A DNA stretch of 61,294 nt from Actinomycetes bacterium (GTDB lineage: Bacteria; Actinomycetota; UBA4738; HRBIN12), in the NCBI GenBank assembly GCA_021155985.1, contig JAJNBA010000004.1, positions 1 to 61,294 on the forward strand. Direction: 5' to 3'. This document shows positions 46,767 through 60,198 of this stretch, in pieces. The notes below the pieces were generated by a model. The model was not told where the DNA came from. It did no database searches and saw only the letters and a list, made by a program, of their open reading frames with translations. The position numbers were made by a program, and so were the translations under genes. Position 1 is the first letter of the stretch. Every line of letters begins with the position of its first letter.

Positions 46767-49211
46767 ATGGCGCAAGAGGGATTGTTCGCGGGGCGGGTCG
46801 AGCCGATCGAGCTCGGGGAGGAGATCCAGCGTTCCTACCTCGACTACGCGATGTCGGTCATCGTCGGGCGAGCCCTCCCCGAGGTGCGAGACGGGTTGAA
46901 GCCGGTCCACCGACGGATCCTCTGGTCGATGCTCGAGGCAGGGCTCCGCCCGGATCGCCCACACCGCAAGTCCGCGTGGGCAGTCGGTGAGGTCGTGAAG
47001 AAGTACCACCCGCACGGCCTCGAAGCCGTATACGACGCGTTGGTCCGGATGGCGCAGGACTTCTCTCTCCGGTACCCGCTCGTCGACCCGCACGGCAACT
47101 TCGGTTCGGTCGACGGCGATCCGCCGGCGGCGATGCGGTACACGGAGGCTCGACTGGCTCCGGCGGCGATGGAGATGCTTCGCGACATCGACGCCGAGAC
47201 CGTCGACTTCGTGCCGAACTACGACGGGTACGAGCAACAGCCCTTCGTCCTGCCCTCACGGTTCCCGAACCTGCTCGTCAACGGCTCCGGCGGCATCGCG
47301 GTCGGGATGGCGACGAACATCCCGCCCCACAACATGGGCGAGGCGATCGACGCGGTCGTCCACTACCTGGAGCATCCGGAATCGACGTCGAAGGACCTCA
47401 TGAAGTTCGTCAAGGGACCCGACTTCCCAACGGGCGGGATCATCATGGGTCGCGACGGCATCCGCGATGCCTACGAGACCGGCCGCGGGTCCATCAAGAT
47501 CCGCGCGGTGTGCTCGGTCGAGGAGGGATCCGCGGGTCGAGCCCGCATCGTCGTCAGCGAGCTGCCGTACCAGGTGAACAAGGCGCGCCTGGCGGAGAAG
47601 ATCGCCGAGCTGGTGAAGTCCGGCAAGGTGAAGGAGATCGCGGACCTGAAGGACCACTCCTCGGGCCGGGCGGGGATGCGCCTCGTGATCGACCTGAAAC
47701 GCGGCGCTAATCCCCAGGTCGTCCTGAACCAGCTCTACAAGCACACGCAGCTCCAGGAGTCCTTCGGCGTGATCATGCTCGCACTGGTCGACGGCGTCCC
47801 TCGCACGCTGAACCTCGCCGAGATGATCGGCCATTACGTCGATCACCAGATCGACGTCGTCACCCGACGCACGCGCTACGACCTGCGCAAGGCCGAGGAG
47901 CGCGACCACATCGTCCAGGGCCTCCTGATCGCCCTCGATCACCTGGACGAGGTCATCCAGGTGATCCGGGGCTCGCGGGATGCGGAGCAGGCGCGCACCA
48001 AGCTGATGTCGAAGTTCAAGCTCTCGGAGATCCAGGCCAACCACATCCTGGACATGCCGCTCCGACGGCTCACGAAGCTCGCCCGCACCGAGCTCGAAGA
48101 GGAGCACGAGGAGCTGCTCGCGAGGATCAAGTACCTCAAGGCTCTGCTCAAGGACCCGAAGAAGATCCGCGGCGTGATCAAGGAAGAGATCCTGGGGATC
48201 AAGAAGAAGCACGGTGATCCTCGGCGTACGCAGATCAAGGCGGATGAGGGCTCCTTCGACATCGAGGACCTGATCGCCGAAGAGGACGTGGTCATCACCG
48301 TCAGCCGGGCCGGCTACGTCAAGCGCGTCCCGATCGACACGTTCCGTCGGCAAGGCCGCGGGGGCAAGGGCGTGCGCGGAGCGACGCTCAAGGAAGAGGA
48401 CGTGGTCGCCAACGTCTTCACCACCACCACGCACCACTGGCTGCTGTTCTTCACGACGAAAGGCAAGGTCTACCGCGTCAAGGTCCACGAGGTCCCCGAC
48501 GCCTCTCGCATCGCTCGAGGACTCTACGCGGCCAACCTCCCGGGCGTGGCCATCTCGGGCGACGAGGGCGTATCCACCGTGCTGCATCTGAAGGAGTACG
48601 ACCCCAAGCGGTTCCTGCTCTTCGCCACGAAGAAGGGGATGGTCAAGAAGACGCCGCTCCCGGAGTACGAGTCCGCGCGTGCAGGCCTCGCCGCGATCAA
48701 CCTCAAGCCGGGCGACGAGCTCATCGACGTGAAGCTCACCGATGGGAAGGACGATGTCTTCCTCGTCTCCCGGAAGGGTCAGGCCATCCGTTTCAGGGAG
48801 CAGCTGGCTCGCCCGATGGGCCGGGCCACCGCGGGCGTGATCGGGATGCGGCTCGCCGAGGACGACGAGGTGATCTCGCTGAGTCTCGCTTCCGACGGTG
48901 AGGAGATGATCAGCGTTTCGCAGCAGGGGTACGGCAAGCGCTCGCCGCTGAAGGACTACCCCGTGAAGGGGCGCGGAGGCAAGGGCGTCATCGGCCACCA
49001 GATCACGAAGAAGACGGGGCTGCTCGCCGGTGCGTTCGTCGGCTCGAAGGAGCAGGATCTGTTCGCGATCTCCTCCAGTGGGATCGTGATCCGCGTGCCG
49101 GCCGGGGAGATCCGCCGGGTCGGGCGATCGAGCCAGGGCGTTCGCACGATGCGCGTCGAGGGCGCCCAGGTCGTCGCGATCGCACCGGTGATCATGCAGA
49201 TGGAGGAGTAG
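46767..49211 (+). CDS. gyrA: DNA gyrase subunit A
   Basis: DGLKPVHRR, catalytic Tyr in AAMRYTE, GyrA-box QGRGGKG, C-terminal pinwheel repeats. Confidence 0.96.
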
Positions 49212-49290
49212 CGCACTCCGAGAGCCGGACGGATCCGGAAGGGAACTGCAGCGCACCGCCGGGCGTTACTGCGATGATGTCGGGACTCCC

Positions 49291-50214
49291 ATGAACATCG
49301 GACTCGGCTTGCTCGTCGAGGCCGCCGCGTTCCTGGCGGCCGTCTACGTCGTTGTGCAGCTGCGGCCGCATCTCCCGCGCCAGACGACGGATCTCGTGCT
49401 CGGGTCGATCGGCTGCGTGATGGGTGCCGGCGCCCTGCTGTTCCAGAGGGACGTGAGTCTCGCCGGTGGTGTGCTCGCCCCTCTGTTCGCGGCGGTCATC
49501 GTGGTGGGGCACGTGCGCGGGTTGGACCTCATGGGTGTCCGTCTCCCGGCCTGGGTGCAAATCCCCGCGCGGGGGCGCCGAGGAGCGTACGCTATCGACC
49601 CAGCCGAGACCCGAACGATCGAGGAGCCTGTGCAGCAACGACGGTCAACGACGGAGCCTGAGCCGGCATCCGGGTTCGATCCCGAGCCGTTGCCCGACGA
49701 CGAGCCGTTCCCTCGCGAGGATGAGCTCGTTCCTCCACTCGGTCCGGTGACCCCGGAAGCGACATGGCCGTCCACGGTCGTCCGGCCGCCCGCGCGAGCG
49801 CGGCTCCCGCGGCGCGGTGTGCGCAGGACACGCGTGGAGATCAGACGGATCGGCCCGCTTTCGGTGCTGAAGTTCTCGCTGATCTTCTACTTCTGCGTCT
49901 TCCTCGTGATCTATCTGTCTCTCGCGATCATCTGGGGCATCCTGTCCGCGAGCGGTGCGATCGAGTCGCTGGAGAAGCTGCTTGGCGTCATCTTCCCGTC
50001 GGCCGGCGCCCAATCGCCGACCGGCGAGCTGAGCACCGGTGAGGCGCCGCCCCTCGAGATCGTCACAGGCCAGCTCTTCACCTGGCTCTTCATCGGTGGA
50101 TGCGTCGGCGTCGCGATCTGGTCGTGCATCAACGTGTTCGTGGCGATCATGTACAACCTGATCAGCGACATCATCGGGGGGATCGAGGTCACGCTCGCAG
50201 ACCGTCGCGACTGA
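49291..50214 (+). CDS. DUF3566-like membrane protein with extra N-terminal TM segments
   Basis: RRIGPLSVLKFS...YNLISDIIGGIEVTL; conserved position after gyrA. Confidence 0.8.
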   Translation: MNIGLGLLVEAAAFLAAVYVVVQLRPHLPRQTTDLVLGSIGCVMGAGALLFQRDVSLAGGVLAPLFAAVIVVGHVRGLDLMGVRLPAWVQIPARGRRGAYAIDPAETRTIEEPVQQRRSTTEPEPASGFDPEPLPDDEPFPREDELVPPLGPVTPEATWPSTVVRPPARARLPRRGVRRTRVEIRRIGPLSVLKFSLIFYFCVFLVIYLSLAIIWGILSASGAIESLEKLLGVIFPSAGAQSPTGELSTGEAPPLEIVTGQLFTWLFIGGCVGVAIWSCINVFVAIMYNLISDIIGGIEVTLADRRD

Positions 50215-50262
50215 GATCGTCAGGATCGGGGCTCGCCCAAGGAGCCCGCGAAGAGGTTTCGA

Positions 50263-50292
50263 TTGACACGGTTTCCGGACCGTGATTACCCT
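50263..50292 (+). promoter_or_regulatory. Sigma70-type promoter for tRNA-Ile
   Basis: TTGACA-N18-TACCCT. Confidence 0.6.
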
Positions 50293-50314
50293 GCGCCGAG
50301 GGCTCGCGGCCCTC

Positions 50315-50389
50315 GGGCCTGTAGCTCAGCTCGGTTAGAGCGCTTCCCTGATAAGGAAGAGGTCGATGGTTCAAGTCCATCCAGGCCCA
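50315..50389 (+). tRNA. tRNA-Ile (GAT)
   Basis: Cloverleaf GGGCCTG...CAGGCCC-A, anticodon loop CTGATAA, T-loop GTTCAAGT; CCA not encoded. Confidence 0.96.
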
Positions 50390-50423
50390 CTTCGTCCACC
50401 ACCCCGATAGGAGGCTGTGCGCG

Positions 50424-50597
50424 ATGGGACACGACACCGAAAGCACGGAGAAGAAGGGCGGATTCTTCCGGAAGCTCCTGAAGCTCGCCTTCATCGGGGC
50501 CCTGGTGGCCGCCGTCATGCAGTTCATGAAGCGCCGGCGCGGCGAGGACGTCGACGACGTGGAGTGGCAGGAGCTGCCGCCGCCCGCGGGCGGGTAG
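50424..50597 (+). CDS. Small membrane protein (57 aa), positional analogue of the DLW-39 family
   Basis: MGHDTESTEKKGGFFRKLLKLAFIGALVAAVMQFMKRRRGEDVDDVEWQELPPPAGG; AGGAGG RBS; followed by a hairpin. Below the ORF-track cutoff. Confidence 0.7.
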   Translation: MGHDTESTEKKGGFFRKLLKLAFIGALVAAVMQFMKRRRGEDVDDVEWQELPPPAGG

Positions 50598-50618
50598 TCC
50601 TACCCGATCGTCCGACGC

Positions 50619-50646
50619 AGAGGGCCCGCCGAACGGCGGGCCTTCT
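50619..50646 (+). terminator. Intrinsic terminator-like hairpin
   Basis: AGAGGGCCCGCC-GAAC-GGCGGGCCTTCT. Confidence 0.65.
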
Positions 50647-50680
50647 CCGTGTCCGAGGCTCCGGCTCTAGACTCGCCCGC

Positions 50681-51508
50681 GTGCTCGAGCCCGGAACGCC
50701 TTGGGATCTGGCCCACGCGGCGGGCCGGGCCGCGAACGTGGAGTTGCGCCCCCTGACCGCGCTGGCGCAGTTCGACGATGCGCTCGAGGTCATGGTGGCC
50801 ACGTGGGGCGCGTTCCAGCTGCCGCCTCGCGAGATGATGACCGCGCTCGCGCACAGCGGGAATGTTCCGTTCGGAGCCTACGACGGCGATCGGCTGGTGG
50901 GGTTCGTCCTCGGCTGGGCAGGCGTGGATCACGGCGGGCTCCACGTCCATTCGCACATGCTGGCCGCGCTGCCGGATCGGCGCCATCGAGGGGTCGGCTA
51001 CGCGTTGAAGCTGGGACAACGCGCGCAGGCGCTCGAGCAGGGCATCCACGTGGCGCGCTGGACCTTCGACCCGCTGGTGGCGCGCAACGCGTGGTTCAAC
51101 CTCGGCAAGCTGGGCGCGGTGGCGGACGGCTTCGGCCGGGCGTTCTACGGGGAGATGACCGACGAGATCAACGCAGGCGATCGCTCCGACCGGCTCGTGG
51201 TCCGTTGGGATCTGGACCCCGACCCGGCGCCGCGTCCCTGGCCCGAGGGCCTCCCGACCGTGCTCGCGGCGGAAGGCGACCCGGACGGGCCTCTCCCGGT
51301 CCCGGTCGGGGCATCCGGCCATGACGGTGGGGTCGTGGAGGTGCCGCGCGACCACGCGGAGCTCCGCCGCCGGGACCCGGCGCTCGCCGCGCGCTGGCGC
51401 GAGGCCACCGCCGAGACGCTCGAGGCCTGCTTCCGCGCCGGATCGATCGCCGCCTCGTTCGACAAGGCCCGGTCGGCATACGCGCTCGTACCCGGGGCGA
51501 GCGAGTGA
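50681..51508 (+). CDS. GNAT-family acyltransferase (D-amino-acid N-succinyltransferase-like)
   Basis: HSHMLA, GVGYALKLGQR, WTFDPLVARNAWFNLGKLG, FYGEMTD...SDRL; coupled to an OSBS/NSAR gene. Confidence 0.82.
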   Translation: MLEPGTPWDLAHAAGRAANVELRPLTALAQFDDALEVMVATWGAFQLPPREMMTALAHSGNVPFGAYDGDRLVGFVLGWAGVDHGGLHVHSHMLAALPDRRHRGVGYALKLGQRAQALEQGIHVARWTFDPLVARNAWFNLGKLGAVADGFGRAFYGEMTDEINAGDRSDRLVVRWDLDPDPAPRPWPEGLPTVLAAEGDPDGPLPVPVGASGHDGGVVEVPRDHAELRRRDPALAARWREATAETLEACFRAGSIAASFDKARSAYALVPGASE

Positions 51509-52647
51509 GCCGGGTCCGCGCCGTCGAGCTGCTCCTCGTGGAGCTGCCGCTCGTTCACCCGTTCCGAACCAGCTTCGGGGAGATGCGCGAGAAGCGCTGC
51601 ATCGTCGTGCGGGTGGAGACCGACGGCGCCGAGGGGTGGGGGGAATGCGTCGCCGACGTGCGGCCCGACTTCAGCGAGGAGTTCAACGACGGCGCCTGGA
51701 TCGTGTTGCGGGAATTCCTCGCGCCCGCGCTGCTCGGTGCGGACACGACCGACGTCGAGAGCGCCGAGCGGGCCTTCTCCGGGGTCCGTGGGCATCCGAT
51801 GGCGAAGGCCGCCCTGCTGAACGCGATCCTCGACGCCGAGCTCCGCTCGGACGGGACCTCGCTGGCGTCGTGGCTCGGGGCGGACAAGGCACGGGTGGAA
51901 TGCGGCGTCAGCATCGGGATCGCCCCGTCGACCGAACTTCTGCTGGATCACGTCGAGGGCTATCTGGCGGAGGGGTACCGCCGGATCAAGCTCAAGATCC
52001 GGCCCGGCGCGGACCTCGAGCGCGTCCGCGCCGTGCGTGCGACGCACCCCAACATCCTTCTCTCCGTTGACGCGAACGCCGCCTACACCCTCGCCGACGC
52101 TGAGGTGTTCCGGTCCATGGACGACCTCGGACTCCTGATGATCGAACAGCCCCTCCACCACGAGGACCTCGTCCGGCACGCCGAGCTCCAGGCGATGCTC
52201 GGGACGGCCTTGTGTCTCGACGAATCGATCCGATCGGCCGCCGCCGCCGCCGCCGCCCTCGAGCTCGGCGCCTGCAGGATCGTGAACATCAAGCAAGGAC
52301 GGGTGGGCGGTGTGCTCGAGGCGAGGAGGATCCACGACCATTGCCGGGAGAACGGGGTGCCGGTGTGGTGTGGCGGGATGCTCGAAACCGGGGTCGGCAG
52401 GGCCCTCAACCTCGCCCTGGCGGCGATGCCCGGCTTCACGCTCCCGGGCGACACGAGCGCCTCGGCGCGCTACTTCGAGCACGACCTGACGAGGCCGTTC
52501 GAGCTCGCGTCCGACGGGACGATGGCCGTTCCCTCGGAGCCCGGGATCGGCGTCTCGCCACTGCCGGAGAGGCTCCGGGCCTGCGTCTCGCGGCGCGACG
52601 TCATCCTCCCCGATCGAAAGAGTGACAAAAGCGGCGGACCGGGTTGA
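51505..52647 (+). CDS. menC: o-Succinylbenzoate synthase / N-succinylamino acid racemase
   Basis: PFRTSFG, KLKI, VDANAAY, EQPL, LDESI, WCGGMLE, PGDTSAS (NSAR/OSBS subfamily). Confidence 0.88.
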   Translation: MSRVRAVELLLVELPLVHPFRTSFGEMREKRCIVVRVETDGAEGWGECVADVRPDFSEEFNDGAWIVLREFLAPALLGADTTDVESAERAFSGVRGHPMAKAALLNAILDAELRSDGTSLASWLGADKARVECGVSIGIAPSTELLLDHVEGYLAEGYRRIKLKIRPGADLERVRAVRATHPNILLSVDANAAYTLADAEVFRSMDDLGLLMIEQPLHHEDLVRHAELQAMLGTALCLDESIRSAAAAAAALELGACRIVNIKQGRVGGVLEARRIHDHCRENGVPVWCGGMLETGVGRALNLALAAMPGFTLPGDTSASARYFEHDLTRPFELASDGTMAVPSEPGIGVSPLPERLRACVSRRDVILPDRKSDKSGGPG

Positions 52648-52856
52648 CGGTGAACCCCTCCCGCTCCTATCGTTCGCAGTGAGAGACCGCTGGAGCCCTC
52701 GGGTTCCGGCGGTTTCTCACGTTCCGGCCCGTTCCGGCCCCCCCGGTTCACCTCGGAAGAGATCTCCTGCTCAGCGCCGCTGTCGTCATACTTGTGTCGT
52801 GCCGTCCAGGGAGCGACGATAGCCGGACGTCCGATGCGTCATCGGACGCCCATGCG

Positions 52857-53417
52857 ATGAAGAAGCGGGTCGTCAGAGCCGAGGAATTCGAGATCCTGGA
52901 TGCGGCGGGCCATGTTCGGGTGCGGATCGGTCTGTCGAACGACGATTCACCGTTCTTCTCGATGCTGGATCCTGGTGGGCAGGTTCGCGCACGATTCGGC
53001 CTCTCGTCCGACGGGTCCGCGGGACTCGCGATCGGCGACGACAACGGGAAAGTCCGGGCGACCCTCGGGCTTTCGAGTGACGGTTCCGCCAGCTTGGCGT
53101 TCGGGGACCGGAACGGGAAGATCCGCGCCAAGTTCGGTCTGGCCTCGGACGCCTCGCCGACCCTTGGAGCGCACGTGGAGGGCGAGGAGGTCAGCCACCG
53201 GTACACGCTCGCCGACCAAGGGTCGCCGACCCTGGGCTTGTACGATCGGTTGGGACGGGTACGGATCCGGCTGGGGCTCGCGGCCGAAGGATTCCCGATC
53301 CTCCGGCTGCTCGACGCGGAGGGCGAGCTGCGTGCGCTGGTGGGACTGGCAGACGATGGGAGCCCATTGATCCAGTTCATGAACGAGCGCAAACAGCCGA
53401 CATGGACGATGCGATGA
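52857..53417 (+). CDS. Hypothetical protein made of 23-aa beta-type repeats
   Basis: About 7-8 repeats of L.L.D..G.VRA.LGL..DGSP; ATGA overlap with the next gene. Confidence 0.75.
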   Translation: MKKRVVRAEEFEILDAAGHVRVRIGLSNDDSPFFSMLDPGGQVRARFGLSSDGSAGLAIGDDNGKVRATLGLSSDGSASLAFGDRNGKIRAKFGLASDASPTLGAHVEGEEVSHRYTLADQGSPTLGLYDRLGRVRIRLGLAAEGFPILRLLDAEGELRALVGLADDGSPLIQFMNERKQPTWTMR

Positions 53418-53923
53418 GCGGCTGGTGGACCGCGGCCTTCGTCGGACAATGGGTGCTCCTCGTCGTCCTGTGCGTCGTCGTGGTGGCGCTCGCCCGGCAG
53501 GTGGGGACGCTGCACCTGCGGCTGGGACCGCGTGGCGCGTTGGAGATCGACACGGAGGGTCCGATGCTCGGTGAGCCGCTGCCTCCGGTCGACGCGCGGG
53601 CGGCGGACGGGACGCCGATCGTGATCGGCGGCCCGGGGTCGAGGCGACTGGTGCTGTTCTCCTCCCCCACGTGCATCGTCTGCCGGGAGGTGGCGCCCGC
53701 GCTGCCGGCGGCCGCACGGTCCGCGGACCTCCTCGCCCAGGTGGTGCACGACGAGAAGGTGGAACGCGTGTTCGACGTTCCCGGCACCCCGTATCTCTTG
53801 GTCCTCGACGAGATGGGGGTCGTCCGGGGGAAAGGCACGGTCAACAACCTGGAACAGGTGGAGGGGTTGGTCGATACCGCCCGGCGCAGGATGCGGGAGG
53901 ACGGTGAGCGATGGGCGAGCTGA
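53414..53923 (+). CDS. MauD-like membrane-anchored thioredoxin-fold protein
   Basis: N-terminal TM, ALARQVGTLHLRLGPRGAL, EGP..G, LFSSPTCIVC, VPGTPY, KGTVNNLEQVEGL (MauD signature pattern). Confidence 0.85.
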   Translation: MSGWWTAAFVGQWVLLVVLCVVVVALARQVGTLHLRLGPRGALEIDTEGPMLGEPLPPVDARAADGTPIVIGGPGSRRLVLFSSPTCIVCREVAPALPAAARSADLLAQVVHDEKVERVFDVPGTPYLLVLDEMGVVRGKGTVNNLEQVEGLVDTARRRMREDGERWAS

Positions 53924-54447
53924 CCGGCCTGGAGCGGGCTCAACGAGCGCTCGCGCAACGCACGAGCCGCCGAGGGTTCCTCGGGCGCGTGGGCCGGGGC
54001 GTGGTCGCGCTGGCGGGAGGATCGCTGGTGGCGACGGCCCTCGCGCCGGATCGGGCCGAGGCCCTGCACATCTGCGGGCACACCTTCACGACGGGCTCGT
54101 GTCCTCATCCGTACGCTCCCTCGTCGCGGACCGACCGGTATGGGTTCCCGGTGCACCCGACCTACGGGTACCCGGTGGACGACCGAGGGAAGCTCTACCG
54201 TGATCCAGCGACGCAGGAGCGCTCGAAGACCTGTGAGCAGCGCGTCCCGGACGTGTACTCCTTCGTGAACAACCCGCGGTACGGGGGAGGCTGGACCCGG
54301 TGTTGCTTCGGGCGGCTCAGGCACATCCAGGACTGTTGCTCCCGCTCCTCGATCCGGATCAACGGCGACTACGCGGTGCGTGGCTACTGCCCCTCCGGAC
54401 TCAAGGTGTTCTGCATCACGTACCGAGAGCTCGCGAAGACGTGCTGA
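53911..54447 (+). CDS. Tat-exported cysteine-rich protein resembling amine dehydrogenase light chain (MauA-like)
   Basis: Twin-Arg signal RTSRRGFLG, AEA cleavage site, 10 Cys, GWTRCC...IQDCC...VFC. Confidence 0.72.
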   Translation: MGELTGLERAQRALAQRTSRRGFLGRVGRGVVALAGGSLVATALAPDRAEALHICGHTFTTGSCPHPYAPSSRTDRYGFPVHPTYGYPVDDRGKLYRDPATQERSKTCEQRVPDVYSFVNNPRYGGGWTRCCFGRLRHIQDCCSRSSIRINGDYAVRGYCPSGLKVFCITYRELAKTC

Positions 54448-55637
54448 GCGACGCCGGGCTCGTATCGCTCGCCGCCGCCGCGGCGGTCGCCGGCTGGTCC
54501 GCGTTGTGGGGTCCCTGAGGTCTCTCGATGGTGGAGACCATCAGCCCCGTCGTGTACGGGACGCGGACCCGCTGGGCGGGGGCCCTGGCGCTCCACGCCG
54601 TGGGCGCGACGGCGACCGCGGCAGGCTTCGGTGCCCTGGTCGCCGCGGCCGCCGCGATGCTCGGTGCCCCCTGGGGGAGGGCCGGCGGCGCGATCGTGGC
54701 AGGGGTCGCCCTCCTGTATCTCGTCCGAGAGCTGAGCGGGATCCGCCTGCCGGTGCCGCAGCTGCGCCGACAGGTGCCGGACTGGTGGCGGACGTACTTC
54801 GGCCGACCGCTGGCGGCGCTGCTGTACGGCGCCGGTCTCGGCGTCGGCTTCTTCACCTTCCTCGGCCACGGGACGCTCGTCGTGGTCACGGCGGGCGCGG
54901 CCTCGACCGGCCGACCGCTGTGGGGTGCGCTCGCGGTGGCGCCGTTCGGGCTCGCGCGGGGCCTGGCGCCGCTCGTCGCTGCCGGATCGCGGGAGCCGGA
55001 GGACGGCCGCCGACTCGTCGACCGTCTGAGCTCGACGTCGGACCGACTCCGGAGGGGGCTGAACGGCCTCGCCCTCGCGGGGATCCTGGTAACCGCCGCC
55101 GCCGCGGCGTGGCGTTCGCGCGACGGCTGGGCCGCGGCGGGCGCCGCGGTCCTCGCGGTGACGTTCGCATGGTCCTCGATCGACAAGGTCGTCGGATGGA
55201 GCCGATGGCGACGGGCCCTCAGCGGCCATGCATTCCCACCGAGCGTGACGCGCGTCGCCGCCTGGGTGGCGCCGGGGACCGAAGCCCTCGTCCCGGCCCT
55301 CGCGCTCCTCGGGCGGCCGCGAGCCGCGGCCGTCGTCGCGCTCGCCGCGATCGTGGTCTTCTCCGCCGCCCTCGTGCGCCTCGCCCTTCGCGACGGCCCC
55401 CGCGTCTCCTGCGGCTGCCTCGGCCGAGGGTCGATCGACGTGCGGGTGGCGCTCGGGCGGAACGCGGCGCTCGCCGCCGCCGCCGCCGCCTCGTGGACCT
55501 CGGCGTCCCCGGACCCGCACCTCCAGCTCCCGCGCGCCGACGAGTCGCTGCCGGCCCTGCTCCTGGCGGGTGCAGTCGCTGCCGCCGTGATCACCGGATG
55601 GCGTGCCGCGATCTGGCTGCGAAAGGGGAGCGTGTGA
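54441..55637 (+). CDS. MauF-like/MauE-like fusion membrane protein, candidate selenoprotein (TGA 54516-54518 = Sec26)
   Basis: GTG 54441 overlaps the upstream stop. Reads MLSDAGLVSLAAAAAVAGWSALWGP-TGA-GLSMVETISP, in frame with the 54528-55637 ORF. PQLRRQVP..W, YGAGLGVGFFT (MauF-like); K...E...SCGCLG...RN (MauE-like). Confidence 0.78.
54519..54562 (+). promoter_or_regulatory. Candidate bacterial SECIS hairpin(s)
   Basis: Just 3' of the TGA: GATGGT-GGAG-ACCATC (or the alternative GGTCTC...GAGACC), then CCCGT-CGTGT-ACGGG with a GT in the loop 32 nt after the TGA. Confidence 0.5.
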
Positions 55638-56227
55638 AGGCGCGGCGGCTGCTGTCGACGCTCGCGCCGTTCGGTGCTGCCCTCGTCACCGTGGCGCTGG
55701 TCACCGCGATCGCCGGCGCACACGACACCGACCTGACCGATCCGAACGACACCCGAGGCAGCCTCGACGTGCGACAGGTGCGTCTCTCGCATAAGTCGGG
55801 ACCGCCTGCGTGGACGATCGTGACCTTCGGCGAATGGCGAACGGGAAAGATCTGGGACCGCGGCTACCTGATGGTCTTGCTCGACACCCAGGGGAAAGAG
55901 GACGCCGAGTACTACCTGCTCGTGCGGTCCGCGGGGACCGGCCTCCTGGGGTCGCTCTGGCGGATCCGCAACGTAGGGCCCGACTCCTACCTCGGCTCCG
56001 TGCCCGTCCAGCGGTTCTCGCGGCTGAGCGCGACCGTCCGGGTCGGTCTGTCTCGGCTCACGTTCGGTGCGCACCGGCTCTTCTATCGATGGTGGGTGGA
56101 GACGCTCTTCACGGGCGAGCGCTGCAAGCGGACGTGCCACGACCGTGCTCCCAACCGCGATCCCGTCCTCCAGTGGAGGCCCGGGATGTCGCCGTCGCCA
56201 CCTCCGAGCGAGTCCCCGTCCCCGTGA
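55634..56227 (+). CDS. Hypothetical secreted protein
   Basis: Signal peptide (AIAGA-H), DPNDTRGSLDV, C-terminal CKRTCHDRAP; GTGA coupling to the upstream gene. Confidence 0.72.
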   Translation: MKARRLLSTLAPFGAALVTVALVTAIAGAHDTDLTDPNDTRGSLDVRQVRLSHKSGPPAWTIVTFGEWRTGKIWDRGYLMVLLDTQGKEDAEYYLLVRSAGTGLLGSLWRIRNVGPDSYLGSVPVQRFSRLSATVRVGLSRLTFGAHRLFYRWWVETLFTGERCKRTCHDRAPNRDPVLQWRPGMSPSPPPSESPSP

Positions 56228-56324
56228 TGGCTCTCGACGGGTGAGCCCGTTTCCCTCGACCAGCGAGCGGGTAGTCGCTGCTCATGCGGTAGCTGCTCCG
56301 GCGATCGAAAGAAAGGAGCCCAGG

Positions 56325-56909
56325 ATGCGGACAGGTCGGATCCTCGCTATCGTCATCACGGCCGGTTTCCTCATCTCGATCCTCGTCGCCGGCACGTCTT
56401 CCGGAGTGCCGGCTGGCTGCACGATCATCGGAACCCCCGACAGCGACCACCTGTCTGGTACTGACGGCCGCGACGTGATCTGCGGCCTCGGGGGGAGGGA
56501 CCAGATCCACGGCAAGGGAGGGAACGACGTCCTCATCGGCGGCGATGGCGGTGACACCGTCCGGGGCGGCGCAGGCAAGGACAGGCTGCGAGGAGGAGGC
56601 GGTGTGGACTTCCTCATCGGTGGCGGAGGCCGCGACGTGGCGCGCGGCGGGAGGGGTCAGGACTTCGTTCTCGGGGGACCGAAGGCCGACAGGCTCTTCG
56701 GCGGTCCCGGCAACGATCCCCAGGTCTGGGGCCAGTCCGGCACCGGGGACTTCGTCAGCGGTGGCAACGGGAACGACTTCTGCTTGATCACCCAGGACGG
56801 CGACGGTGACGACGTGGTGGTGGGCGGCCCGGGTCGTGATACCGCCGAAGCCGATCCGGGAGACGCTCGGCGGAGCGTTGAGACGTTCGAGATCTGCCTC
56901 GGCGGATAG
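56325..56909 (+). CDS. Secreted RTX/hemolysin-type calcium-binding repeat protein
   Basis: AAGGAG RBS, signal peptide, CTIIGT...DVICGLGG.D, multiple GGxGxD nonapeptides. Confidence 0.85.
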   Translation: MRTGRILAIVITAGFLISILVAGTSSGVPAGCTIIGTPDSDHLSGTDGRDVICGLGGRDQIHGKGGNDVLIGGDGGDTVRGGAGKDRLRGGGGVDFLIGGGGRDVARGGRGQDFVLGGPKADRLFGGPGNDPQVWGQSGTGDFVSGGNGNDFCLITQDGDGDDVVVGGPGRDTAEADPGDARRSVETFEICLGG

Positions 56910-57224: not shown

Positions 57225-57297
57225 GGGGACGTAGCTCAGCTGGTAGAGCACCTGCTTTGCAAGCAGGGGGTCGGCGGTTCGAGTCCGCTCGTCTCCA
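57225..57297 (+). tRNA. tRNA-Ala (TGC)
   Basis: GGGGACG...CGTCTCC-A with G3:U70, anticodon loop TTTGCAA, GTTCGAGT. Confidence 0.96.
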
Positions 57298-57442
57298 CCG
57301 AACTCAGAGCCTCCTCCCGACGAACAAGCGCGGCTTGGCCCGATGCCGGGTACGGCCGACCGTGAGAGCCTCGACCTGTCGGCAAGGTTGGGCCGCGCCA
57401 TCCCTACAATCCTGACGTCCACCGACCCGGGGGAGAGCGCCT

Positions 57443-60198
57443 TTGGCAGGTGACGTCATCGGGCGCGAGTCCGAGCTCGCGGTCCTCGATCGCTTCCTGG
57501 ACTCGATCCCGTCCGGGCCGAGTGCAGTGCTCCTCTCCGGTGACCCCGGCATCGGGAAGACCACCGTATGGCAGGAAGGGCTGGCGGGTGCACTGCAACG
57601 GCGCTACCGCACGCTCTCATGCCGCCCGGTCGAGGCGGAGACGCGCCTGTCGTACGCCGCCCTCGGTGACCTCCTCGAGCCCGTCCTCGAGGAAGCACTT
57701 CCTGCGGTGCCCGAGCCGCAGCGCCGGGCCCTCGAGGTGGCCCTCCTGCGGTCCCCGAGTTCGGGCGCCCGGGCCGACCAGCGGGCCGTGTCCCTGGCCG
57801 TCCTCGGATGTCTCCGGTCGGTGGCCTCCACCTCCCCCGTCGTCCTGGCGATCGATGACGTCCAGTGGATGGACCTCCCCTCGGTCCGGGTGCTCCAGTT
57901 CGTCGTGCGGCGCCTGAAGGACGAGCAGGTTGGTTCGATGACGGCCGCTCGAGGCGCCCGTGCCGATGACGACCCCCTGGGCGTCGTGTCGACCTTCGCC
58001 GAGGATCGCGTGCACGCCGTCCACGTCGGACCGCTGTCGCAGGACGCCCTCGAACAGGTGCTCCGGGCCAAGGTGGGGGAAGGGTTCTCCCGAACGACGC
58101 TCCTGAGCCTCCACGAGATGTCGGGAGGCAACCCCTTCTTCGCTCGGGAGATCGGATTGGCGCTCCTTCGCCGTGGAGGTGACGTGACGGCCGGCGAACG
58201 GCTCCCGATCCCTGACCGCCTTCAAGAGCTCATCGAGGATCGCCTCGGGGGGCTCCCTGCGCGGACCGTCGAAGCCCTGGAGGTCGTCTCGGCCCTGTCG
58301 GCTCCGACGTTCGATGCGATCGCTGCCGCGACCGATCCTTCCGAGGTCGACCGTCGCCTGGGTCCGGCGATCGAGAACAGCGTCGTCGAGTTCGTCGGCG
58401 ACCGCCTTCGGTTCACCCACCCCCTCCTCGCGTCCGCCGTCTATCAGAAGATCCCGCTGACTCGGCGTCGCGAGCTGCACGCGCGGCTCGCGACGATCGT
58501 CCGAGATCCGGAGGAACGAGCCCGCCACCTGGCGCTTTCCGTCGAGGGCCCGGACATCGCCGTCGCCGCCGCCCTCGAGGAGGCCGCCCCGCTGGCCTCC
58601 TCTCGGGGAGCGCCACAATCCGCGGCTGAGCTCTGGGAGATGGCCTGCCGCGCCACGCCGCGGGACCGGGGCGAGGACCTGGTGCGCCGGACCCATCAGG
58701 CGGGCATAGCGCACTACGAGAGCGGGGACACCTCGCTCGCGCGGAGTGTCCTCGAGCAAGCGGTGGATCTCTCGATGGCCGGGCCGGCTCGGGGCCGCGT
58801 GCTGCTGGACCTGGGGATGGGCCTCGCCGAGACCGAAGGGTGGCGGGGGGCCTGGGCCGTGTTCGAGGCCGCTCGGGGCGAGGCGGGGGACGATCTCGCG
58901 CTGAGGGCACGGGTCGAGCAGAACCTCGGGTACGCCTGGCTGTTCAGGGGGGACCTCGCGGCATCGGAACGGCACGCTCGCGCAGCGCTGCAGCTCGCCG
59001 AGGAGCTGCAGGAACCACAGGTGATGGCCGAAGCGTTCCAGGCGTATCCATTCGTCGAGTTCCTCCTCGGACGCGGGGTCGATCAGGCGAGTTCAAATCC
59101 CACGTCATCCGTGCAAGCTTCACTCTGGCGCAGCTCCTAAAGTTCACCGATCGCCTGGACGAAGCCCGCCGGACGTTCACCGAGCTCCTGGGTGATGCCG
59201 CGGCGCACGGCGTTGAGACCCCGATCCCGCAGATCCGGTACCACCTCGCCGAGCTCGAATGCCGGGCGGGCAACTGGGATGCAGCCATGGAGCACGCCCG
59301 GGAGAGCAGGGCGGCCGCCGAGCGACTCCGCATGGGGGCGTGGATGTTGTCGGAGGGCCACTTCGCGGTGGGCCTCGTGGAAGCCCATCTGGGGCGGGCC
59401 GATCCGGCGAGGCTGGCAGCCCTCGAGGGGCTCCGGTTCACCGAGGCGGCCGGCGAGATCCTCCTCCAGATCCTGAATCTGGCGGTCCTGGGGTTCCTCG
59501 AGCTCTCCCTGGGCCGACCCGCCGAGGCCGATGCGTTCCTGTCCAGGGCGGTGGAGCTCGAGCAAGCGATGGGCGTTCGGGAACCCGCGTACTTCCGGAT
59601 CGTCCCGGATGAGATCGAGGCGCTCGTGGGCCTGGGACGGCTCGACGAAGCCGAGGCGCTCCTCGCGCCCTTCGAGGACGCGGGCCGACGCCTCGATCGG
59701 GCGTGGGCCATGGCGACGGGAGCCAGATGCCGGGCGCTCGTGTTCGCGGCCCGGGGTGATCTCCAAGCTGCATCCGATGCAGCCGATGAGGCTTTCCTTC
59801 ACCACGGGCGCCTGCCGCTTCCGTTCGAGCTGGGTCGGACGCTGTTGGTGACCGGAACGGTGCAGCGCCGGGCGAAGAGGAAGCGTGAGGCTCGGGACAT
59901 GCTCACGCAGGCCCTGGAGATCTTCGAGGGGCTCGGCGCCGCGGCGTGGTCGGAACGCACGCGTGCCGAGCTCGCCCGGATCGGGGGGCGGGCCGCCTCC
60001 TCGGTGGACCTGACCCCGACCGAGGCCAGGGTGGCGGAGCTGGTCGCCGCCGGGAGCACCAACCGAGAGGCGGCCGACGCCCTGTTCGTCAGCGTCCATA
60101 CCGTGGAAGCCAATCTCAAGCGGATCTACCGCAAGCTGGGCATCCGCTCTCGCACGGAGCTGGCCTCGAAGTTCCCATCCGGCTCCCCGGGATCCTGA
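57443..60198 (+). pseudogene. LAL/MalT-type AAA-ATPase-LuxR regulator split by a frameshift near 59085
   Basis: First frame: GRESEL, GDPGIGKT, IDDVQW, SGGNPFF, FTHPL. Second frame: TPR-like region and LuxR HTH (LTPTEARVAELVAAGSTNREAADALFVSVHTVEANLKRIYRKLG). Confidence 0.8.

Follow-up and report, generated by a model that had tools for sequence, protein, structure and literature searches.

A conserved actinobacterial operon encoding a predicted selenocysteine-containing MauF-MauE fusion and a ten-cysteine exported protein

Gene order and conservation of the operon

Which product is served by MauD-, MauE- and MauF-like proteins in an actinobacterium whose gene cluster contains neither MauB nor MauG? 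The question is raised by positions 52857-56227 on the + strand of contig JAJNBA010000004.1 (assembly GCA_021155985.1), of which we analyzed one whole stretch of 61,294 nt, referred to here as the window. Five overlapping genes lie there, which we call g1 to g5: g1 (52857-53417) encodes a 186-aa protein of beta-hairpin repeats, g2 (53414-53923) a membrane-anchored MauD-like thioredoxin with the CxxC motif C87-I-V-C90, g3 (53911-54447) a 178-aa precursor with a Tat leader and a ten-cysteine mature domain, g4 (54441-55637, GTG start) a 398-aa MauF-MauE fusion when it is read through a TGA codon, and g5 (55634-56227) a 197-aa protein with a hydrophobic N-terminus. All four junctions were re-read from the sequence. 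The stop codon of g1 overlaps the ATG of g2 within ATGA at 53414-53417 (an alternative ATG for g2 lies at 53402), g2 and g3 overlap by 13 nt, the GTG of g4 at 54441 sits 7 nt inside g3, and GTGA at 55634-55637 joins the end of g4 to the start of g5. The five genes form a translationally coupled operon, and the overlaps, junctions and protein types described in the first-pass annotation were all confirmed. In the gap that separates g1 from the enolase-superfamily gene upstream, a consensus scan returned a single promoter-like site (TTGACG, 18-nt spacer, TATCGT; 52644..52673, + strand) where 0.1 would be expected from shuffled sequences, which is to be read as a pattern match only.

The first-pass annotation had also proposed a survey of gene neighbourhoods, and this survey established that the clustering is conserved: the order of the five genes is kept across 80 related loci, drawn from 204 species genomes, far beyond what chance would give. 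Within these loci g2 and g3 were recovered 80 times each, g1 77 times, g4 74 times and g5 65 times. Judged from locus lengths and match positions, the missing genes fall at contig ends, with the sole exception of one locus (L046) that has 2.5 kb of sequence upstream of g2 and still lacks g1. Among the 294 genomes of the order, 144 carry g3 and with it the cassette. RNA-library contigs from three studies cover the operon, and one of them, 1084 nt long, corresponds to 53468-54551 and reaches from g2 through g3 into the first part of g4, past the TGA; carry-over of DNA into these libraries is possible for all of them. Parts of the operon that lacked RNA-contig cover in single runs were not counted as evidence.

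The in-frame TGA of g4

The N-terminal half of the g4 product is MauF-like (about residues 5-181) and the C-terminal half is a MauE with the motif C324-G-C326, recognized by PF07291: the score of 67.6 bits exceeds the cut-off of 27, and the match takes in positions 7-126 of the 128 in the model. No MauF model exists in Pfam or NCBIfam. Direct comparison with MauF gave 29% identity over 156 aa by BLASTP (E 3e-07), and the profile-profile comparison by hhalign, with 16 g4 sequences on the one side and 20 MauF sequences on the other, gave a match of 99.1% (E 1.4e-18, 177 columns). The g4 product matched neither PF13386 nor the NCBIfam selenoprotein models. The MauF alignment runs through an in-frame TGA at 54516..54518 (+ strand), which corresponds to residue 26 in the motif W-G-P-U-G-L-S-M and falls in the column of Cys79 of Paracoccus denitrificans MauF (W-S-P-C-G-Y-S-S), the only invariant cysteine among the 20 MauF sequences. 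Going by this alignment, g4 carries the conserved cysteine of MauF in the form of a Sec-for-Cys replacement. MauF is reported, from older work with mau mutants, to be needed for synthesis of the small subunit of amine dehydrogenase; to our knowledge, no active residue or mechanism has been put forward for it since the mau clusters were described. We found no paper in the literature describing a MauF selenoprotein.

Another reading of the TGA would be that of an ordinary stop, which ends a micro-ORF of 25 codons and is followed by a separate MauE-like gene from the ATG at 54528. Public gene calls and Atlas records indeed start after the TGA, translation table 11 gives an ORF at 54528-55637, and Rfam finds no SECIS match. 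Nevertheless, we consider this reading very improbable. All 79 assessable copies have TGA at this point of a shared motif (GP-U-G-L-S-M), never TAA or TAG, and TGC or TGT do not occur either. The 25 codons before it are conserved and belong to the MauF homology that continues across the TGA into the column of the invariant cysteine, most loci keep a constant spacing between the stop codon of g3 and the TGA motif, and the machinery for selenocysteine insertion is present in the genome. Among full-length copies of g4, residue U26 is kept in 61/61, and C324 and C326 in 60/61 each. It is thus almost certain, as far as comparative sequence data can tell, that g4 contains an unannotated selenocysteine, and the Sec-containing MauF/MauE fusion that the first-pass annotation had proposed is upheld by the constancy of the TGA, by its alignment with the MauF cysteine and by the Sec genes of the host. 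Hydropathy analysis of g4 could not bring the positive-inside rule into agreement with the topology published for MauE, so that Sec26 is not assigned to either side of the membrane.

Two conserved hairpins follow the TGA. The first, a candidate SECIS element (GAUGGU-GGAG-ACCAUC; 54527..54542, + strand), begins 11 nt after the U of the UGA, which is reportedly the UGA-to-hairpin spacing rule derived from work on E. coli fdhF. Its positions are paired in 98.7% of cells, five of its six pairs are invariant in 75 distinct sequences (there is no covariation), and it appears in the RNAalifold consensus. Synonymous sites within its stem are frozen: TCG is used in 61/61, ACC in 59/59 and ATC in 61/61 copies. 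The second hairpin ((G/C)CCCCGU-loop-ACGGG(G)(C/G); 54544..54562, + strand) is paired in 94.5% of cells, and for its outer pair (35-53) CG was counted in 49 sequences and GC in 22. Codons in its loop vary freely, while in the stem CCC and GGG are each kept in 60/61 sequences. Searched against Rfam with E <= 10, positions 54400-54700 gave two chance matches, neither of them to a SECIS family, and the single-sequence fold of 54516-54565 (z -1.07 relative to shuffles) is not distinctive at this G+C content. The genome itself encodes tRNA-Sec, SelB (304 bits), SelA (486 bits) and SelD (381 bits), the three proteins all scoring over their curated cut-offs. We also considered whether the Sec machinery is tied to the presence of the cassette and dropped this idea, since SelA occurs in 267/294 genomes of the order and g3 in 144/294.

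The exported protein and its neighbours

The mature domain of g3 contains ten invariant cysteines and a single tryptophan, W128, which is invariant and stands beside C131-C132; there is a cysteine at the C-terminus, and several histidines are invariant or nearly so. The leader, a long twin-arginine one that resembles that of MauA in its conserved n-region, scores 17.0 bits with the Tat model TIGR01409 (cut-off 16.7) and aligns with the MauA leader by hhalign (97.3%, E 2.5e-11), over 42 columns that comprise the leader only. Likewise, the 18.4-bit match of TIGR02659 is confined to residues 7-41, and a PDB profile search matched nothing but the leader of 3c75_L (E 0.28). PF02975 gave no match at E <= 1, and the mature part found no match in Pfam, NCBIfam or PDB sequences. 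By sequence comparison, g3 has a MauA-type leader on a mature part that is unrelated to MauA. As g3 holds a single tryptophan, formation of TTQ is impossible. Its relatives number 553 in 90% clusters and 189 clusters at 50%; identities range from 68 to 90% among the 120 relatives listed and from 69 to 97% in the 80 loci. In merged gene calls, a second g3-like subfamily (about 40-45% identity) follows sequence that resembles MauE and MauD. The family is large, strongly conserved and unnamed, so that its function constitutes a real gap. An AF2 model of g3 built on a 23-row alignment (pLDDT 58.7) is too poor for comparison, and a Foldseek search of the PDB with this low-confidence model returned nothing at E <= 0.001, its top rows being NTF2-like chance matches.

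Upstream of g3, the g2 product matches the MauD model TIGR02661 with E 1.8e-20 and 73.2 bits, under the equivalog cut-off of 188.6; on this score we call it MauD-like rather than a MauD equivalog. Annotated mauD genes were matched by tblastn in 22 plasmid records with 27-35% identity. The cysteines C87 and C90 are kept in 78/78 sequences, and a hydrophobic stretch can be read from the sequence at residues 4-27.

Neither g1 nor g5 matched a family in Pfam or NCBIfam. The g1 protein is built from a 23-aa unit repeated about 7.5 times; its start, M(K/R)KRV, is conserved and nothing upstream of it is. It is presumably cytoplasmic because its sequence carries no signal peptide or other export signal. 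AF2 predicts a single-layer antiparallel beta-sheet of 16 strands (pLDDT 91.4, pTM 0.80), and the best Foldseek matches are engineered extended single-layer beta-sheets of OspA (PDB 2fkj, 3cka and others; E 8.6e-08, TM 0.62-0.71), which, like the model, have beta-hairpins repeated along an extended antiparallel sheet. At 13-17% identity there is no sequence relationship, and g1 differs from the OspA sheets in having no lipoprotein signal and no globular domains capping the ends; the likeness of the predicted fold concerns shape, not function. A complex prediction for g1 and g3 scored 0.00 (mark 0.32), which says nothing about binding as the fold of the g3 partner is itself uncertain. In the Atlas, g1 falls into hypothetical Actinomycetota clusters only, and g5 likewise into clusters of hypothetical proteins, one of which gives a weak pointer to PF09985 (Glucodextran_C; 20% of its members, score 0.92). 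The Atlas searches on g1 and g5 also gave a lead to the tail-fibre protein gp37 (0.85), which is a lead only. The g5 product, presumably exported in view of an N-terminus that looks hydrophobic by eye, has the pair C164-x3-C168 in 62/62 sequences and a Pro/Ser-rich tail.

Relation to mau systems and possible function

The closest known arrangement is mauFBEDACJG of P. denitrificans PD1222 (plasmid 1, NC_008688). Both clusters encode homologues of MauF, MauE and MauD and, after mauD, a small Tat-exported cysteine-rich protein, the leaders being homologous. In contrast to the P. denitrificans cluster, the present operon lacks MauB, MauG, amicyanin and MauJ, has MauF and MauE fused and the MauF cysteine changed to selenocysteine, and adds g1 and g5 of no known family; its host belongs to the Actinomycetota, not the Pseudomonadota. 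The protein in the mauA position differs from MauA in its unrelated mature part, its single tryptophan and its 10 instead of 12 cysteines. The first-pass annotation had noted the lack of MauB and MauG in the window, and in the genome, which is 91% complete, neither the MauB domain (PF06433) nor the MauA domain (PF02975) was found, both weak negatives as these searches rang in no control genome; the MauG domain (PF03150) was not found either, with the same search ringing in 4 control genomes. The idea that the MauDEF proteins serve a different disulfide-rich exported product is in line with g3 being MauA-like in its leader only and having one tryptophan.

CcdA/DsbD-type proteins share with MauF and g4 a polytopic membrane architecture and a Pro-Cys motif located where a helix ends. 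Some MauF entries bear the name CcdA in the databases they come from, and PF13386 is present in one MauF entry. However, MauF and g4 have one conserved Cys/Sec where CcdA/DsbD use two, and therefore a two-cysteine relay of the CcdA/DsbD type is not applicable. A precedent for selenocysteine in a DsbD-like membrane protein is TsoB, which a 2026 review lists in a table (PMC13188914). The MauE half of g4 resembles the MauE proteins of a recent preprint (bioRxiv 10.64898/2026.03.05.709764), whose active-site motif is given there as C-x-C, in its C-G-C motif and in the thioredoxin-fold partner encoded alongside. The accessible text describes stand-alone MauE and thioredoxin fusions and mentions neither MauF nor selenium, whereas here MauE is fused to a Sec-containing MauF and accompanied by one client.

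Taken together, we are inclined to regard the locus as a dedicated selenium-dependent oxidative-folding operon, which would mature the exported g3 with membrane thiol-redox machinery of its own and would not make a methylamine dehydrogenase. On this proposal g3, with its MauA-type leader, would be exported by Tat, to which the SRRGFLG motif points. Outside the membrane, the anchored g2 would use its CxxC motif to form and shuffle five disulfides in g3, by analogy with MauD and DsbA, and the MauE half of g4 would recycle g2 via C-G-C and pass electrons to the quinone pool, as may be extrapolated from the preprint on DsbB-like MauE (bioRxiv 10.64898/2026.03.05.709764). The ribosome would read UGA-26 as selenocysteine with SelB and the hairpin 11 nt downstream, which the conservation and the presence of the machinery suggest. 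Sec26 would probably serve as a strong nucleophile in the attack on mixed disulfides or in their resolution, providing an isomerase or reductase branch beside the oxidase. The g1 protein may escort the precursor, and g5 may be an extracytoplasmic partner.

Two other functions have to be weighed against this proposal. Since DsbB, VKOR and a second MauE were not found in the 91%-complete genome, g4 being its only PF07291 protein, g2 and g4 may also, or instead, serve general disulfide formation. In the strict form of this idea, they are the general DsbA/DsbB-type system of the cell, and g1, g3 and g5 are mere neighbours or a few of many clients. It would agree with the preprint, according to which MauE can stand in for DsbB in E. 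coli and is far more widespread than MauA (bioRxiv 10.64898/2026.03.05.709764). We nevertheless think it unlikely: the gene order and overlaps are kept in the 80 loci, the cassette is present in only 144 of the 294 genomes of the order, four of five high-quality relatives without g3 carry a stand-alone MauE over the cut-off, a second MauE of the present genome could be unassembled given its completeness, and the MauA-type leader points to a specific client. Alternatively, g3 could be a true functional analogue of MauA, i.e. a cofactor-carrying small subunit in some unrecognised redox enzyme of the extracytoplasmic space (with, e.g., a quinone derived from the single Trp and Cys, or a metal site), and g1 or g5 its partner subunit. 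The position of its gene, which follows a mauD-like gene as mauA does, the leader, a conservation very strong for a small exported protein, and W128 with the neighbouring cysteines and conserved histidines would fit; by eye, GGW-TRCC...IQDCC even recalls ASW-VASC...YRDCCG of MauA, a lead rather than a test. Yet the profiles align in the leader only and PF02975 does not match, the by-eye alignment has Phe at the position of the second TTQ tryptophan, and the cassette contains no MauG, flavoprotein or radical-SAM gene, with no MauG domain in the genome; we judge this role for g3 to be rather improbable. A combined scheme, to which we likewise give little credence, would make the MauA-type leader a recognition tag that hands varied cysteine-rich cargoes to a Sec-run MauF/MauE/MauD machine, with g3 as a redox small subunit whose cofactor arises from the single Trp and neighbouring Cys/His, g1 as cytoplasmic escort and g5 as outer partner.

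A natural Sec-for-Cys swap at the only invariant MauF cysteine would mark this residue as catalytic and redox-active. The finding would extend the selenoproteins by a polytopic membrane family, for which a term search of the 2026 review of prokaryotic selenoproteins gave no occurrence of mau or methylamine (PMC13188914), and would correct public gene calls that truncate g4. The operon would also tie the DsbB-like MauE to a defined client, offering a tractable system for the correct pairing of five disulfides. The hosts of the operon are a widespread group of uncultured soil Actinomycetota.

A predicted selenocysteine in a MauF–MauE fusion

Five overlapping genes on the plus strand (g1–g5, 52857–56227) form the operon, and all four junctions match the first-pass annotation: ATGA between g1 and g2 (53414–53417), a 13-nt overlap between g2 and g3 (53911–53923), a 7-nt overlap between g3 and g4 (54441–54447) and GTGA between g4 and g5 (55634–55637). 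The g4 frame runs from a GTG at 54441 through 25 codons of a hydrophobic segment ending in W-G-P to an in-frame TGA (54516–54518, residue 26), and then continues with G-L-S-M-V-E-T-I. Of 80 related loci, 78 carry this motif, as does the window, and the sequences of L054 and L074 stop short of it. All 79 copies have TGA at this position, and none has TGC, TGT or another stop. Even though the g4 proteins are as low as ~45% identical, the peptide 5' of the TGA is conserved, and in most loci the start codon lies 25 codons before the TGA and overlaps the g3 stop.

The C-terminal half of g4 contains a MauE domain (67.6 bits; threshold 27), whereas the N-terminal half has no family match because neither Pfam nor NCBIfam holds a MauF model. 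By BLASTP, g4 is 29% identical to Paracoccus denitrificans MauF over 156 residues (E 3e-07), with Sec aligned to the Cys of MauF W-S-P-C-G-Y-S-S; this residue, C79, is the sole invariant cysteine when 20 MauF proteins are aligned. A profile built from 16 g4 sequences matches the MauF profile with 99.1% probability (E 1.4e-18; 177 columns, g4 residues 5–181), and this alignment continues through the TGA. An alignment spanning the TGA, together with Sec placed on the MauF Cys, identifies g4 at the sequence level as a MauF–MauE fusion, with the predicted Sec at the one conserved Cys of MauF. Besides Sec, the only conserved cysteines of g4 are C324-G-C326 in the MauE half (60/61 each). Some MauF records go under the name CcdA at source, and PF13386 is found in one; this hints at a possible distant DsbD/CcdA kinship.

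The source genome (2.67 Mb in 139 contigs, 91% complete, the window being contig C73) encodes one tRNA-SeC (ARAGORN) as well as SelB, SelA and SelD, with profile scores of 304, 486 and 381 bits, each above cut-off. The selA and selB genes are adjacent (contig C26:639–3896, minus strand), and selD lies on contig C18 (16642–17568, minus strand). The earlier proposal of a Sec-MauF/MauE fusion is thus supported by the invariant TGA, the position of Sec on the MauF Cys, the MauE score and this machinery.

Downstream of the TGA, a first hairpin (GAUGGU-GGAG-ACCAUC, 54527–54542, plus strand) begins 11 nt past the U, with five of six pairs invariant among 75 distinct sequences; a second (54544–54562, plus strand) has CG as outer pair in 49 sequences and GC in 22. 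Codons in the stems are frozen (Ser29 TCG 61/61, Thr33 ACC 59/59, Ile34 ATC 61/61, Pro36 CCC 60/61, Gly40 GGG 60/61), while loop and spacer codons are free to vary. Averaged over 13 codons close to the TGA, codon entropy is 0.78, versus 1.15 over 82 elsewhere (one-sided Mann–Whitney p 0.044, only indicative since the sequences are kin). This codon usage is compatible with an RNA constraint. Two results speak against the Sec reading: no Rfam SECIS family matches the region, and it folds no better than shuffled sequences (z -1.07). Our literature search found no paper joining MauF with a selenoprotein. The main text of a 2026 review of prokaryotic selenoproteomes (PMC13188914) contains neither 'mau' nor 'methylamine', though its supplements may list further families; the nearest entry is a table row for a rhodanese/DsbD fusion-like selenoprotein.

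The ten-cysteine protein and its companions

The proposed client, g3, is a protein of 178 aa with an SRRGFLG Tat motif, a single Trp (W128) and ten invariant cysteines, one of them the C-terminal residue. Its close relatives comprise 553 proteins in 90% clusters, with 68–90% identity among the 120 matches listed. Distant relatives are few (189 clusters among 1.84 billion representatives), but include a second subfamily of ~40–45% identity that shares the Cys/Trp framework and has longer inserts (P0133, P0138, P0132, P0144). In two merged gene calls of this subfamily (P0133, P0138), MauE-like and MauD-like sequence lies directly upstream of the g3-like part, the same mauE-mauD-mauA order as in the canonical mau cluster.

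Compared with a profile of 26 MauA sequences, g3 aligns over its leader only (97.3%, E 2.5e-11, 42 columns); mature g3 has no match in PF02975, TIGR02659 or the PDB, and a fold search is meaningless with an AF2 model as poor as this one (pLDDT 58.7). By eye, G-G-W-T-R-C-C ... I-Q-D-C-C of g3 resembles A-S-W-V-A-S-C ... Y-R-D-C-C-G of MauA, with Phe167 at the position of the second TTQ Trp, and both points serve as leads only. A TTQ cofactor on g3 is excluded, since g3 has one Trp and no MauG was found in the 91% complete source genome.

g2 is MauD-like, scoring 73.2 bits with TIGR02661 (under the equivalog cut-off of 188.6) and being 27–35% identical to annotated mauD genes by tblastn; all 78 sequences compared keep its C87 and C90. 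The g5 protein combines a hydrophobic N-terminus with a Pro/Ser-rich tail and an invariant C164-x3-C168 pair (62/62), and no family match was found for it in Pfam, NCBIfam or Atlas searches. g1 (186 aa) has a conserved M(K/R)KRV start, no conservation 5' of it and no signal peptide. It consists of ~7.5 repeats of 23 residues, modelled by AF2 as 16 antiparallel strands (pLDDT 91.4). The model resembles engineered extended single-layer beta-sheets of OspA (Foldseek E 8.6e-08, TM 0.62–0.71) and, more distantly, Rhs-repeat shells, a likeness of shape rather than function.

Taken together, the earlier suggestion that MauDEF-type machinery serves another disulfide-rich protein is supported, the MauA likeness of g3 lying in its leader. 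The operon is most readily understood as a novel form of the MauF/MauE/MauD maturation system that uses selenium and serves an unnamed ten-Cys protein.

Distribution and breadth of role

g3 is encoded in 204 species-representative genomes, and a neighbourhood survey bore out the co-occurrence of the five genes, which are syntenic in the best 80 loci. The nearest relatives of the source genome are uncultured Actinomycetota MAGs throughout. Within the order, in tallies that take in genomes flagged unpublished, g3 occurs in 144 of 294 genomes (60/109 high-quality ones) versus 267 of 294 for SelA (105/109); selenocysteine use is therefore order-wide and untied to the cassette. The occurrence of g3 is patchy: three genera have it in 23/26, 6/38 and 0/6 genomes, and one family in 0/27. 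Two loci are titled Candidatus Velamenicoccus archaeovorus (L046) and Gemmatimonadales (L056), with cassette proteins 74–75% identical to those of the window; both contigs have probably been mis-binned. Among the 80 loci, only L046 has space upstream of g2 yet lacks g1.

g2 and g4 could also act in general disulfide formation. A 2026 preprint shows that MauE substitutes for DsbB in E. coli via its C-x-C motif and is far more widespread than MauA (bioRxiv 10.64898/2026.03.05.709764). In the source genome, at 91% completeness, neither DsbB nor VKOR was found, and g4 was the only MauE, so that a general role is possible. Among five high-quality relatives without g3, a stand-alone MauE over cut-off is present in four and VKOR in one. 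A dedicated role is favoured on three grounds: the five genes keep a fixed architecture, g3 carries a MauA-type leader, and the distribution is patchy.

Expression hints and genomic setting

RNA-library contigs from three studies (X15; X16 and X17; X18) match the operon at 90–100%, although DNA carry-over is possible and the contigs fall short of proving a single transcript. A 1084-nt contig from X15 (53468–54551) runs from inside g2 through the whole of g3 and its overlap with g4 and on past the TGA; pieces from X16 cover g1, g2–g3, g4 and the g4/g5 junction, and two from X18 are identical to the window.

The cassette occupies a conserved chromosomal place. Upstream (46767–52647, plus strand) lie gyrA, a membrane protein gene, tRNA-Ile (50315–50390), a GNAT-domain gene and an overlapping enolase-superfamily gene, followed by a 210-nt gap with a promoter-like site (52644–52673, plus strand). 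Among 48 loci with full flanks, the protein-coding genes of this upstream flank are common to 37–46, the downstream flank to just 2–3. Directly 3' of the cassette is a small RTX protein with calcium-binding nonapeptide repeats (56322–56909, plus strand; PF00353, 83.9 bits), present in only 3 of the 48 loci and therefore placed outside the cassette. Beyond tRNA-Ala (57225–57299), a LuxR-family regulator is apparently split across two overlapping plus-strand frames (57443–60198), one with an AAA_16 N-terminus by domain match (57443–59140) and one ending, by eye, in a LuxR-type helix-turn-helix (58840–60198); this could reflect a frameshift, an assembly error or a pseudogene.
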